NCBI RefSeq assembly: GCF_000092105.1 | Contig: NC_014148.1 | Coordinates: 1,290,001 to 1,322,000, forward strand | DNA length: 32,000 bases | From: Planctopirus limnophila DSM 3776 | GTDB taxonomy: Bacteria; Planctomycetota; Planctomycetia; Planctomycetales; Planctomycetaceae | Direction: 5' to 3' | Shown: positions 17,101-28,451 of the stretch, in pieces | How positions within the stretch are numbered: position 1 is the stretch's first letter | How the letters are laid out: the number at the start of each line of letters is the position of its first letter | Translations under genes and position numbers: made by a program | The notes under the pieces: model-generated | Told to the model about the DNA's origin: nothing | The model's input: only the letters and a program-made list of their open reading frames with translations | Database searches by the model: none

Positions 17101-20100
17101 CAATACCGTCGAAGGTCGTTTTACCGAACAGGGAGGAACCAGCAGGCAACGATTTCACAACATTGCCGCTGGCATCGTACCATGTGTTGGACACCAGATT
17201 GTTGCCAATCGTTCCCGTCGCCGGATCGACGCCATATTGAATCGACTGATAGGTACGGCCCTGGTTGTCGAATTTGGTCTCACTCTGGGCGATGAGGTTC
17301 CCAAGGATCGTAGTGTCATACTGCTGCTGGAGCGTGACCTGATCGAGGTTGTCGTAGGTCTTTTTGGCGAAGTAATCGATCTCGCCATCTGTCGTCACCT
17401 GTCGATTGCGCCAGTCGTAGCCATAGCTGGTGACGCGTATGGTGGAAGCATCAACATGCTGTGTGACCTCGGTCAGATTGCCATCGCCACCATCGGTGCC
17501 GCCATCGTATTGATTCGAGATGATGACCACCATGTTGTTGTCGGGATCGACACCGCCTCCAGTCGGATCCTGTTCCGTCGCCCCATCGTCGTTGGTGCCG
17601 ATGTAGGTGGCCGAGACGAGGCCACGGGCGTCGAAGACCTGAAACGAAATGGTGCCACCAGGAGTAACGGTCCGATTCCGCCGCTTCATCGCGTCGTAAC
17701 CGTAGGTCGTCTGGTCATAGTTCGTGCCGCTGACGCCGGTCCCTGAAGTGGGAATTGTGTGGTAGATCCGTTGGAACGCCGCGAGGCAACAATCGGTGTA
17801 TTCGTAGGTTACCCAGCGGGTGTATGACAACTGCGGGAACCCTCCCAACGGGACTGTGCCACCGGAATTCGTGGCGGCGACGTATTCGGCGAGACTGCCC
17901 GTGGTGGTGGAGGCGGTTGCCTGGATTCGTTCCAGGACCTTGCCTCCAGCATCGTGGAGAACGATGACAACTGGGTTGATCAATTCATAGCTATCCGTGG
18001 CGGGATTCCACCAACCTCTGGCCTGATAAACAACATGATTGACGTCGTCATAAACAGCATAACTTGCTGTTCGAATGACTGTCGCCGTGCCTTCGATGTC
18101 AATAAAATGCACTGGGCTAAGGGCGAGAACTGTGCGACCTTGATCATCAACCGTTAAGTCGGTGACAAGGTTCAAACCGCCACCTGTCGGAGTCGTCCAA
18201 CCGGCGGGAGCTCCTGATACAATTGTGGTGTTGACATCCTGAATCTTTTGGACAACCGCCCCTGTGGCTAAGTCGTAGACTGTATGAGTGATGTAGCCTC
18301 GCTCGTCCATGCTCCAGGTCATGCGACCGCGATCATCAAAGTACTCCTGGTTTGCCGCGGCGACACCGCTTCCATTTTGATCGGTCGGAATCACTGGGAG
18401 AGTGGTTGAGCGTTGCTTCATTTGAGTCGTGCCGTCGTACCAGGTGTACGACATTGTCGATTCAATGAGTCCGGTTCCGTCGTCATTGCGGAAGCGGGTC
18501 ATTTTCGAGACGGGATAGACCGTGGCTCCACCGGCAGTGCGCGAGGTGTATTCATAGGACAGCTGGGGAACTGGATCTCCCGCAGTACCCTGCTGAAGTG
18601 CCTTACCAGAGACAAACCCTGCCGCCGCACCGCTTCCTGTGGTGGTGTAGTAGCTGGTGGTCGAAATGAGGCCTTCGTCGGTTTTGAGTTCAATGTCGAG
18701 GTCAGCCGCTGTATCGTCGTAAGCGAGCACGGCTGAGGGGGATGCCTCCCATAGCACTCGATGATCGGTATCGTAATGATAGGCCGTGATCCAATGGTCG
18801 GATCCATCCGAGAAGTCTCGAATCAGTGGTTGTCCGATTGTATTGCTGTAGACTATTAACTCCGTACCGTCAGGATAAGTTTCGACAGTACGAGTCGCCC
18901 ATGCATTGGAGGCTCCATTCGAGATGCGGTTGGTGTAAGCGAATTCAAAAGTACGCGAACCTCCGTTAACGCGTTCCAAGGTCACACGCTTTTGCTCATC
19001 GTATTCAAAGTAATTGTCAGCGTAAGTTGCCAGGATGCTGTTGCTCGTTGTTAATGGATCAACACTGTTGTTGACCATCCTCTGGAAAGTGTCTGGTTCG
19101 ATCACATACTTGAGTGCATGAGCGAACCCATGGATATCTCCCGCCTTGTAGTAGCGGTAGTACATCGATTGAGTAAGCTCCCAGCCAGTACTGGTCGGTT
19201 CCTCCAATTCGACGAGTTCCAGATCACTCAGGCTACCGTTCGCTGTCGTACCATCGTAATAACCATACGTTGCCCGACGAACATCTTCCCAACCACCAGA
19301 GCCAAGTTCGCGGCGAAGCGTAGCGCTTGTCAAATTTCCTGATGTGGCATCGTAGGTGTAAACGAATGCTTCAGTCAGCACTTCCGCACCCACCATTCCA
19401 GTGCGGCGGATTTCGGCAATTTTGCCTGTCGGCGTGTAAGACAGCACTTCTGTAATGGCGCCTCCGGCTTCAACCATTCGAGCGAATGCACCGGAAGGTG
19501 ATGTGGTCTGGATGAAGTCATGAAACTCGAACTGAACACCATCTGCATAAGTGAGACGCAAAACGTGAGCAGAGGTGTCATGCTCCAGTCGAGAATTGCT
19601 GCCAAACATGGGTACGAATTGCGGAGTCGCTTTGTTGAACCAAAGTGAACTGGTTGAGGAGCGGATAACGACAACTTCTTCGACACCATCAACAATGTGT
19701 GGCCAGTTGAATACCAGCCAACCGAACCCCTGACCCACATTCGTCGGAGTGGTGAGTTGGTTGGTGTAACTGCGCTGATGCATCCAATTCGCACCGAATC
19801 CGTTTGAACGAACGTCGATGGAGGAGATTCGTAAGGCTCCGTTGGAATACTGCACCGGATTCGATGACTCTGTCGTCGGGCAATTCTGGCACTCTTCCTG
19901 TGAGCAGTCGCTGGGGGGTGTGGGAGTGAGGGGAGGCCCGCCACTTCCTGACGAAGAACTTCCCGAACTACCACTGGAACCACTGCTTCCCGAGGACCCG
20001 CTGCCGCTTGAATGGCTCGACTCCGACGAACCGCTCTCCGAAGAGGGAGAGGGGGTGCTGGAATGTGACGAGCTGGGCGAGTGGGAACTTGAGGGTGACG

Positions 20101-27305: not shown

Positions 27306-28451
27306 ATGTCTTCTTCACTCGATGAACCGATCTATGCTTTTGAGGCTCACCATCGAGACTGGAAAGGAGATGTGTGCCTGTATGATGACGGAAAAATGGC
27401 CCGCCCAGGAATCGATCAAGGTCGATACGAGTTTGAGAAACATCATCGCCTTCTCTTGAAATGGGATCATTGGTCGCCAGAAGAACTCATGTGGTGTGAA
27501 GAAAGGCAAATTTATCAGAATTTGCAAAAAACTTTCTCACTACGCCCAGTTCCAGTGGATGCGATTCGATGGAATTTCGCGAATTTCTGGAGCGGCTTTG
27601 ATGCACTCGCTTTTGAGCGTCACCTGCTTGGTGTTTCAGGAAAACACAAGTTTCGAATTTCCGAACAAAATCCACAGATCGTGTTTGAAAGTGTTTTCGG
27701 AACTCCGGGGAAGGGACGCGAGCGTTGGCCAAAGGCTCGGCAGGTCTGGTACACGGGAGAAAATGTTGCTCCGCCGCTGGATCAGTTCGATAAATGTCTC
27801 AGCTTTCATCGGGATATTAAGGATCCGAGACATCTTCGCTGGCCCTACTATTTACTGCACTTGGCATCGTTGCCCATGTCATTTAACGATCTTGTGAAGT
27901 GCCAGTCGTCTGTCAGTACTTGGGCAGAACGCCCGGGATTTTGTGCATTCATCGCATTCAATGAGGGATGCCAGACACGAAATCGATTCGTGGAAAAGTT
28001 ATCCAGATACCGCAGAGTCGATTGTCCTGGTCGTGTTTTGAACAATATGACATCCGAGACACTGGGCCAGCGGGGAAATCTTCATGGAAAAATCAATTTT
28101 CTGAAGCAATACAAATACGCTGTGTGCTTTGAGAATACTTCGACCAGAGGATCTGAAGGATATGTGACAGAAAAGCTGGTGGACGCCATGCTGGCAGGCT
28201 GCATACCCTTGTACTGGGGAGATCACCGTGTCGGGGAAGATTTCAATGAGAATAGTTTTATCAATCTTGGGGTATACGGAAATGATGTCAACGCGATGGT
28301 TCAGCATGTGATTGAACTGGATTCAGACGAACGACTTCAAAACAATCTGTTCCAAGAGCCGTGGCTTCCTGAAATCAAGAGTTCTGAGCACTTTTCATTT
28401 GAGACCTCGAAGGATGCGATTCTGAAGCTTGTGGCAAATGTAAATAAATGA
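27306..28451 (+). CDS. GT10-family alpha-1,3/4-fucosyltransferase with extra N-terminal module
   Basis: The block YKYAVCFENTSTRGSEGYVTEKLVDAMLAGCIPLYWGD matches the GT10 signature (FENS...GY.TEK...A......P.Y.G). It lies next to fcl. GC is low (about 45% by eye). Confidence 0.85.
   Translation: MSSSLDEPIYAFEAHHRDWKGDVCLYDDGKMARPGIDQGRYEFEKHHRLLLKWDHWSPEELMWCEERQIYQNLQKTFSLRPVPVDAIRWNFANFWSGFDALAFERHLLGVSGKHKFRISEQNPQIVFESVFGTPGKGRERWPKARQVWYTGENVAPPLDQFDKCLSFHRDIKDPRHLRWPYYLLHLASLPMSFNDLVKCQSSVSTWAERPGFCAFIAFNEGCQTRNRFVEKLSRYRRVDCPGRVLNNMTSETLGQRGNLHGKINFLKQYKYAVCFENTSTRGSEGYVTEKLVDAMLAGCIPLYWGDHRVGEDFNENSFINLGVYGNDVNAMVQHVIELDSDERLQNNLFQEPWLPEIKSSEHFSFETSKDAILKLVANVNK

Follow-up and report, generated by a model that had tools for sequence, protein, structure and literature searches.

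Why should the gene for a giant, serine-rich RHS protein lie just downstream of one glycosyltransferase (GT) gene, which in turn backs onto a row of others? The question is posed by a 32,000-nt stretch of Planctopirus limnophila DSM 3776 (contig NC_014148.1, positions 1,290,001 to 1,322,000), hereafter the window, whose numbering is used throughout. An initial annotation of this DNA had suggested that a glycan containing fucose is built on the Ser-rich stalk of the RHS protein by the products of the GT genes. Based on Pfam and NCBIfam profile searches with 18 selected open reading frames (ORFs) of the window, structure prediction and the comparison of related loci, we favour, with moderate confidence, a reading in which the GT9-like gene and the RHS gene are a functional pair, constituting a dedicated cytoplasmic O-heptosylation system for the poly-Ser tracts of RHS toxins.

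The RHS gene and its GT9-like neighbour

The RHS gene (14135..20455, minus strand) encodes a polymorphic-toxin-type protein of 2106 aa, as judged from its ORF, translation and relatives. Residues 1-175 (19931..20455, minus strand), the proposed glycan acceptor, include 102 Ser (58%, compared with 7.6% in the remaining protein). Every 15-aa window of the first 200 residues contains at most three hydrophobic residues, indicating that the protein carries neither a signal peptide nor a transmembrane (TM) segment. Tandem-repeat analysis of the Ser-rich DNA gave only short, imperfect and weak repeats of 6-15 nt, which argues against a recent simple expansion. The mostly-Ser, signal-less head described in the initial annotation is thus borne out, the span given there (19931-28451) taking in just the 5' end of the RHS gene together with the GT genes.

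Profiles for the RHS core scored below threshold (RHS_repeat, 21.9 bits against a cut-off of 22; TIGR03696, 24.3 bits against 32.5). The core was recognised from a DPYGL motif at its end (aa 1911-1915; 14711..14725, minus strand) and from its identity to relatives: residues ~190-1915 are 40-53% identical to RHS genes of more than 60 loci, and the relatives include one (L070) with RHS_repeat and Ntox16 matches. DPxGL marks the junction between core and toxin in RHS proteins. Homologues differ at the C-terminus, with Ntox16 in L070 and an AMOP-like module in the window. The latter, variable and Cys-rich (aa 1921-2106; 14135..14695, minus strand), comprises 186 residues, 12 of them Cys, and matches Pfam AMOP (PF03782; E 1e-8) with 35.9 bits, the cut-off being 25. 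Domains of this family occur in extracellular proteins of eukaryotes, among them MUC4, SUSD2 and isthmin, and our literature searches found no paper linking AMOP with Rhs or polymorphic toxins. The module may be an adhesion or binding domain instead of a toxin.

The stop codon of the GT9-like gene (20538) and the RHS ATG (20455) are separated by 82 nt on the same strand, in agreement with the initial description. This spacer (20456..20537, minus strand) provides a Shine-Dalgarno-like GGAG 7 nt upstream of the RHS start, which reads TGA-TTT-ATG with the TGA in frame, and the context AGGA...ATGCC is kept in four relatives. A scan found no terminator-like site in the spacer, and operon-like spacing between the two genes is also seen in three related loci (L001-L003).

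The upstream gene (20538..21527, minus strand) encodes a GT9-fold protein of 329 aa, the proposed initiating protein O-heptosyltransferase. It exceeds the threshold of Pfam PF01075 (29.5 bits against a cut-off of 22), with a match that covers aa 128-221 only, corresponding to the C-terminal Rossmann half, and scores far below the cut-off of the NCBIfam WaaF model. The AlphaFold 2 (AF2) model (predicted local distance difference test score, pLDDT, 78; predicted template modelling score 0.80) shows a GT-B fold, and its top 30 Foldseek matches in the PDB are all GT9 enzymes (E 1e-10 to 1e-7), including Veillonella 3tov, WaaF 1psw, TibC 4rap/4rb4 and WaaC 2h1h, with TibC giving the lowest root-mean-square deviation. 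The protein thus combines a two-Rossmann GT-B fold with nearest solved neighbours in GT9.

A hidden Markov model (HMM) search of 1.84 billion cluster representatives returned 2247 matches at E <= 0.001, 1104 of them at E <= 1e-30. Canonical enzymes of the WaaC/WaaF type fell outside the reach of this search, and the GT9-like proteins therefore form a separate clade. Its members share 60-80% identity across the orders of Planctomycetota and extend into Acidobacteriota and Chthoniobacteraceae; one to four copies are found per genome. There are 88 invariant positions in the clade, including six Cys (C259, C260, C265, C270, C284 and C299), and an N-terminal GD motif (D18) is also conserved. In the AF2 model the six-Cys stretch forms a low-confidence insertion ahead of the last helix. 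Elsewhere, GT9-like domains are fused to methyltransferase, second GT9, GT2, GT8-like or NifU domains. The last of these fusions carry NifU_N, an Fe-S scaffold domain, at their N-terminus (P0033/L161:1577-2977, P0041 and P0087), and that of L161 is flanked by a GT8-like and a methyltransferase-like gene. Judged from sequence, the Cys cluster of the clade is probably metal-binding, and the NifU_N fusions hint that it binds iron or an Fe-S centre.

Conserved neighbourhoods of the GT9-like gene

The association was examined in a forward scan of one genome per GTDB species, which gave 502 relatives of the GT9-like protein. The best 80 loci, at 60-99% identity to it, were examined; they come from several orders of Planctomycetota, from Acidobacteriota and from Chthoniobacteraceae. 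Searches with the window proteins (tblastn) detected the same RHS subfamily in 30 of the 80, at 40-50% identity over aa ~190-1915; the RHS gene lay downstream on the same strand in 26 and in another arrangement in four. Where at least 7 kb of downstream sequence was available, 23 of 46 loci possessed it. The only recurrent partners to emerge from clustering of all neighbouring ORFs were HldE (25 loci), RHS, a Cys-rich protein of small size, GmhB (3) and a giant kinase encoded convergently (5), and NCBIfam confirmed the identities of HldE (E 1e-116 to 1e-131), GmhA and GmhB. No Wzx, Wzy, ABC exporter, wzm-wzt, lipid A, 3-deoxy-D-manno-octulosonate (Kdo) or waa genes recurred near the GT9-like gene in these 80 loci, so that the exporter neighbourhood which the initial annotation named as fatal to its idea did not appear.

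Two types of locus were distinguished. Type A (the window, P. hydrillae L001, L002, L003 and L009) has a stand-alone GT9-like gene directly followed by an RHS gene with a Ser-rich head of 180-350 aa. In type B loci (among them L032, L040, L050, L056, L059, L064, L068, L070 and L076), the GT9-like domain is fused to a Methyltransf_24/FkbM domain, sometimes with a second GT9 domain, and is followed by HldE, a Cys-rich protein of 130-160 aa and RHS, in that order; L068 additionally holds GmhA and GmhB.

Type B RHS genes are immediately preceded by the gene for the small Cys-rich protein (L070:13550-13951, L040:5538-6002, L064:8123-8599 and ~30 other loci). This protein carries the Cys motifs C.C..GWC.RH.C ... 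C..C ... CGC, has a weak match to DUF6171 and precedes RHS even where no GT9-like gene is nearby (L138). It could be an adaptor or chaperone for RHS; a tblastn search did not find it in the window. A different neighbour, found 2-3 kb downstream of the GT9-like gene in convergent orientation (L021, L027, L035, L039 and L008), is a protein of 1000-1650 aa with an N-terminal Ser/Thr-kinase-type motif. It belongs to Gemmataceae- and Schlesneria-type loci without RHS, and in the P0101 context a neighbour of 1617 aa gave Pkinase and beta-propeller Pfam matches.

Several genomes contain more than one module. Tandem GT9-hldE-RHS modules share a contig in L099/L101, and Schlesneria RYN_441 (L003, L014, L017 and L022) has several GT9-like copies, whose Ser-rich partners differ from copy to copy. 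L070 and L050 are bordered by integrase or ParA-like genes. These multi-copy modules look like a modular, possibly mobile system.

The reverse scan, in which an RHS-core alignment was searched against metagenomes and counts were limited to loci with at least 8.8 kb of upstream sequence, found the GT9 module in 8 RHS loci and did not find it in ~9. From these counts, the link between the GT9-like gene and RHS is strong yet not obligate. Chance adjacency was considered and rejected: with one to four GT9-like copies per genome, a gene of this RHS subfamily nevertheless lies within 10 kb at about half of the informative loci, whichever of the two scans is considered.

The common denominator of the GT9-like loci is poly-Ser, defined here as 9 Ser in 12 residues. 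Nearly every GT9-linked RHS protein has such a tract, the sole exception (L006) falling just under the cut-off. Its position differs between groups: it lies at the RHS N-terminus in the window, L001-L003, L005 and L018, whereas type B RHS proteins lack the Ser-rich head and carry, at a constant position behind a YYRYY motif, a poly-Ser loop with 7-25 Ser, often with a second loop further on. Type A proteins have no poly-Ser loop at the YYRYY site. Loss of the Ser-rich region from otherwise syntenic loci would have counted against the initial annotation; L001-L003 keep it. In the reverse scan, all 8 GT9-linked RHS proteins had poly-Ser, and all 4 RHS proteins without poly-Ser lacked the GT9 module (Fisher one-sided p = 0.05).

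In loci that lack this RHS, poly-Ser is frequently encoded beside the GT9-like gene by other ORFs (L014, L017, L027, L035, L039, L042, L159 and others). Those of L014 and L017 have a Ser-rich head followed by beta-rich domains, that of the acidobacterial locus L042 is a Ser-rich protein of 672 aa, and the Ser-rich heads encoded in L020, L024 and L061 belong to other RHS families. Counting segments with at least 45% Ser over 40 aa, we found 20 per 321 kb at -2 to +3 kb of the GT9-like gene and 1 per 231 kb at 6-10 kb upstream, a 14-fold higher density near the gene (p = 2e-4).

Four loci encode near-pure poly-Ser mini-ORFs of ~75-125 aa (L027:13136-13510, L035:11848-12165, L039:13231-13560 and L159:11493-11720), one of which consists of MNGP followed by ~40 Ser. 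They contain no other domain and lie just downstream of the GT9-like gene and a GT or methyltransferase gene; the companions are GT8-like genes in L027 and L159, Mannosyl_trans3 with an FkbM methyltransferase in L039, and an unannotated 251-aa ORF in L035.

Candidate extension enzymes, proposed pathway and alternatives

Divergently transcribed from the GT9-RHS pair are the four genes named in the initial annotation, all of which were recovered. The first (21566..22597, plus strand) is an ORF of 343 aa, probably with its true start near Met31, which had no Pfam or NCBIfam match. Its AF2 model (pLDDT 87) matches glycogenin, LgtC and the GT8 entry 3tzt in Foldseek, its profile gave weak GT8 matches including the PsrP enzyme GlyE (5gvv, E 0.02), and a DxD motif (D127/D129) is invariant in the family, which is small (51 matches). 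The protein shares 52% identity with the N-terminal part of the product encoded next, a fusion of 1122 aa (22724..26092, plus strand) with four GT-A-type domains, of which GT2 and GT25 exceed their Pfam thresholds and GT8 (22.4 against 24.3) and DUF707 (19.2 against 24.1) fall just below. GDP-L-fucose synthase, Fcl, follows (26210..27166, plus strand; NF047922, E 2e-86, 290 bits, under the curated cut-off of 500, with a Pfam Epimerase match), and then a GT10 alpha-1,3-fucosyltransferase-like protein (27306..28451, plus strand), whose FucT_N and GT10 C-terminal domains are both over the Pfam threshold. No TM segment was found in any GT protein of the window.

The GT8-like gene adjoins the GT9-like gene in the window, L001, L003, L027, L159 and L161, and L055 encodes a single polypeptide composed of GT8-like, methyltransferase and GT9-like domains and zinc ribbons. 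Other lineages have a GT2+methyltransferase or Mannosyl_trans3+methyltransferase gene at the same site, suggesting that this slot is regularly filled by extension-type GTs of differing kinds. Separately, a conjugative or integrative element (L160:8752-12243; TrwB, relaxase and recombinase) has individual PF11397 GlcNAc-transferase, GT8-like, GT2 and GT25 genes; its extension domains are the same as those of the window fusion, and it lacks a GT9-like gene, RHS and poly-Ser.

According to the mechanism that we favour, the GT9-like protein, a soluble cytoplasmic GT-B enzyme, would add a sugar to Ser of the RHS poly-Ser tract before export, most likely L-glycero-D-manno-heptose from the donor ADP-heptose. 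Soluble neighbouring GTs would then extend the glycan, the GT8-fold enzyme being the best supported candidate, the four-domain fusion a plausible one, and Fcl and GT10 weaker ones; in Planctopirus, the extended glycan could be fucosylated. Methyltransferases and variable GTs may elaborate it, with RHS toxins as the main clients, and the predicted product is a polymorphic toxin whose C-terminus is swappable and whose stalk is glycosylated in mucin-like fashion. The gene anatomy, the folds and the conserved linkage with hldE, gmhA and gmhB, with methyltransferase domains and with poly-Ser ORFs are what the analysis shows, whereas heptose as the donor, Ser of the tract as the acceptor, the sequence of enzymatic steps and any part played in export, stability or target binding are inferred.

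Known systems resemble this scheme in part. The bacterial autotransporter heptosyltransferases (BAHT; TibC-TibA and Aah-AIDA-I), to which the initial annotation had compared the locus, likewise pair a cytoplasmic GT9-fold GT-B enzyme with a giant secreted substrate encoded directly downstream, and use an ADP-heptose donor and a Ser acceptor; both would apply to the GT9-like system, the donor being suggested by operonic hldE, gmhA and gmhB in relatives, which fit the analogy. TibC, among the best structural matches of the GT9-like model, has a beta-barrel at residues 1-97 and a four-Cys Fe(III) finger inserted late in its C-lobe (PMC4358343), and the late six-Cys insertion of the window enzyme recalls this finger. 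The two differ in length (329 and 406 aa) and in the number of Cys (six invariant, compared with four). Where BAHT enzymes act on a beta-helix autotransporter in Proteobacteria, the proposed substrate here is an RHS protein or disordered poly-Ser tract and the hosts belong to Planctomycetota, Acidobacteriota and Verrucomicrobiota. The GT9-like enzyme is also often fused to other domains.

The serine-rich repeat adhesins of Firmicutes (Fap1, GspB and PsrP, with GtfA/B and GlyE) share a low-complexity Ser-rich acceptor, several soluble GTs (GT8 and GT2 types among them) encoded in a cluster with the substrate, extension enzymes that differ among lineages, and cytoplasmic glycosylation before export, which is proposed here as well. 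In contrast, neither the initiating GT4 pair GtfA/GtfB nor SecA2/SecY2 was found among the scanned window ORFs, the initiating candidate is of GT9 fold, and the substrate is an RHS toxin with no signal peptide or LPXTG motif. With other RHS/YD toxins (type VI secretion system (T6SS) Rhs, TcB/TcC and WapA) the window protein shares a long YD-repeat core, the DPxGL junction, a swappable C-terminus, a small downstream ORF and an orphan RHS C-terminal fragment nearby. Unlike them, it has the 175-aa poly-Ser head (internal loops in relatives) and a dedicated GT9/hldE module, and no PAAR, VgrG-binding or TcdB/TcaC domain or signal-peptide N-terminus was found in it.

A number of observations weigh against pairing the GT9-like enzyme with RHS as a heptosylation system. 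A profile built from 22 GT9-like homologues recovered no GT9 chain among all PDB chains even at E <= 10, returning chance matches only, so that the GT9 relationship is carried by the Pfam match and the fold; sequence similarity to TibC or WaaC was likewise not detected. In the model, the first Rossmann strand starts from residue 6 and the N-terminal beta-barrel of TibC is missing, which would make the enzyme BAHT-like in action at most and not a member of that family. The position equivalent to WaaC D261 is presumably Val in the GT9-like protein, leaving donor specificity uncertain. In the window itself, tblastn found no homologue of hldE, gmhA/gmhB or a methyltransferase. The co-occurrence expected from the initial annotation was upheld for the GT9-like gene, which is linked to RHS beyond this genome, and for the GT8-like gene, which recurs and is once fused, yet no GT9-like gene lies within 10 kb of about half of the RHS relatives whose upstream flank is complete; such unlinked RHS paralogues could be served by an enzyme encoded elsewhere in the genome. 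Conversely, both RHS and a Ser-rich ORF are missing from the vicinity of ~8 to 10 GT9-like loci. Linkage of fcl and GT10 is common only to Planctopirus, being conserved in the sister species P. hydrillae, and the fucose-containing RHS glycan of the initial annotation is thereby reduced to a suggestion from adjacency. The poly-Ser tracts could also be just flexible linkers, and the support as a whole comes from comparative genomics.

An alternative is a role of the GT genes in building a lipid-linked oligosaccharide, namely the inner or outer core of lipopolysaccharide (LPS) or a lipooligosaccharide (LOS) with Lewis-like fucose. Such a glycan is put together on lipid A inside the cytoplasm before MsbA flips it, and RHS would be a mere neighbour in the same island. 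GT9, GT8, GT25, GT2 and GT10 are classic LPS-core and LOS families, sources annotate the GT9-like protein as 'ADP-heptose:LPS heptosyltransferase', hldE, gmhA and gmhB are LPS-core genes in other bacteria, and an insertion sequence (IS) element and GC dips suggest an island. Such a role would explain the enzyme families and also the missing export genes: as initially reported, no Wzx, Wzy, ABC exporter, polyprenyl-phosphate transferase or chain-length regulator was detected among the 18 scanned window ORFs. The use of this finding as an argument against a polysaccharide proved weak, because LPS-core or LOS-type assembly by GT9, GT8 and GT25 enzymes requires no Wzx/Wzy/ABC exporter. The resemblance to WaaC/WaaF systems extends to the GT9 fold, to the hldE/gmhA/gmhB linkage in relatives and to the co-occurrence of the other GT types. 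We nevertheless regard an LPS or LOS function as unlikely. Lipid A, Kdo and waa genes were found neither among the scanned window ORFs nor as recurrent neighbours in the 80 loci; the clade lies out of sequence-search reach of the canonical heptosyltransferases, as the HMM and PDB searches indicated; and its genes, present in two to four copies in some genomes, are tied to RHS or poly-Ser genes. Left unexplained would be the same-strand order of GT9, hldE, small Cys-rich protein and RHS across orders, as well as the poly-Ser ORFs of loci without RHS.

It is similarly improbable, in our estimate, that the GT9-like system acts on poly-Ser proteins generally or on another acceptor, with the RHS head an occasional substrate or none and the divergent GT8/fusion/fcl/GT10 operon making an unrelated glycan such as a holdfast or capsule. 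Many GT9-like loci do have non-RHS poly-Ser ORFs or no obvious partner, around half of the RHS relatives have no GT9-like gene nearby, fcl and GT10 are not co-conserved with it, and the L160 element has its GT8-like, GT2 and GT25 set, with the PF11397 enzyme, in the absence of GT9-like and RHS genes. Set against this are the 82-nt operon-like spacing in the window and L001-L003, the presence of poly-Ser in nearly all GT9-linked RHS proteins, and the GT8-like::GT9-like fusion and repeated adjacency, which tie at least the GT8-like enzyme to the GT9-like one. That the module instead remodels a surface glycan of the producer that serves as toxin receptor or entry route, and is co-inherited with the toxin gene for self-protection has a precedent in the surface-glycan receptors of contact-dependent toxins in other systems, but is very improbable given that immunity is specific to the C-terminal toxin whereas the GT9 link tracks the conserved core and poly-Ser while C-termini vary, that the GT proteins are all soluble with no membrane step encoded, and that the stand-alone poly-Ser mini-ORFs would go unexplained.

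Surroundings of the locus and wider meaning

Downstream of RHS, by 36 nt, lies a 385-aa ORF (12941..14098, minus strand), a candidate immunity protein by its position in the ORF list; it had no Pfam or NCBIfam match, and neither it nor the adjacent 208-aa ORF (together 12.1-14.1 kb, minus strand) was assigned to a family. In the ~2 kb beyond these genes (10010-12118) all ORFs are of at most 117 aa, and this part may represent degraded cassettes or non-coding sequence. The gene map further shows cobT, cobS and a His-phosphatase gene (3.4-6.4 kb, plus strand), and genes for a secreted Pro/Thr-rich protein, an LPG_synthase_TM protein and an EVE protein (6.8-10 kb, minus strand). One product of that region (6818-8197, minus strand; 459 aa) has a signal-peptide-like N-terminus, a Cys/Asn/Gly-rich segment and a long Pro/Thr/Ser-rich region, with no Pfam family. 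It could be a further glycosylation client, though it lies 12 kb from the GT9-like gene.

At its other end, the GT cluster is bounded by an IS transposase fragment (28589..29197, minus strand; Pfam rve, rve_3 and rve_2), likewise conserved in P. hydrillae (L001). Beyond it is an orphan RHS C-terminal fragment of 626 aa (30086..31966, minus strand) with an uncharacterised C-terminal module of 436 aa. It matches TIGR03696 (Rhs_assc_core) at aa 110-189 (E 2e-17) and is 98% conserved in L001, and RHS sequences are thus found on both flanks of the GT genes. GC content is 47-49% over 26001-29000 (fcl, GT10 and the IS fragment) and 13001-15000 (the RHS 3' end and downstream ORFs), compared with ~54% elsewhere, a pattern that would fit modules acquired by horizontal transfer or swapped.

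Protein O-heptosylation by GT9 enzymes and the glycosylation of Ser-rich adhesins are already known; the enzyme clade, the acceptor type and the client class would be new. Full-text searches found no paper on a heptosyltransferase or heptosylation together with Rhs, in keeping with the initial statement that glycosylated RHS/YD proteins are undescribed. Heptose and AMOP are both absent from a 2012 survey of polymorphic toxins, as are glycoproteins and Rhs from a 2025 review of the phylum. RHS toxins have been studied almost entirely as T6SS or Tc cargo, and we know of no post-translational glycosylation of them.

Oligo-heptose O-glycans have been described in the phylum on the S-layer protein of Kuenenia stuttgartiensis, for which the transferase was unidentified and a GDP-heptose route was favoured (bioRxiv 10.1101/2020.12.03.409086). 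This is also heptose-based protein O-glycosylation in a planctomycete, and a Kuenenia contig (L079) encodes a member of the GT9-like clade; the substrate there is the S-layer protein and not RHS. Tentatively, the locus may belong to a widespread protein-glycosylation system of Planctomycetota, with outliers in Acidobacteriota and Verrucomicrobiota. It would consist of a metal-binding GT9 clade with its own ADP-heptose supply, methyltransferases and variable extension GTs, coating poly-Ser with (methyl-)heptose-based glycans. Its main clients would be RHS toxin cocoons with no known secretion signal and stand-alone poly-Ser mini-proteins, and the toxin would depend on its glycan stalk for export, surface display or target recognition.

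If the proposed heptosylation of poly-Ser is correct, protein O-heptosylation would reach past the autotransporters of Proteobacteria to a new enzyme clade and a disordered poly-Ser acceptor, and the clade would provide a candidate transferase for the heptose O-glycans of the Kuenenia S-layer. The poly-Ser tracts common in planctomycete proteins would gain a testable function, and P. limnophila is genetically tractable, which makes a direct test of the prediction possible. For RHS toxins, it would imply a different biology of export or display, in a phylum largely devoid of classical delivery machines.

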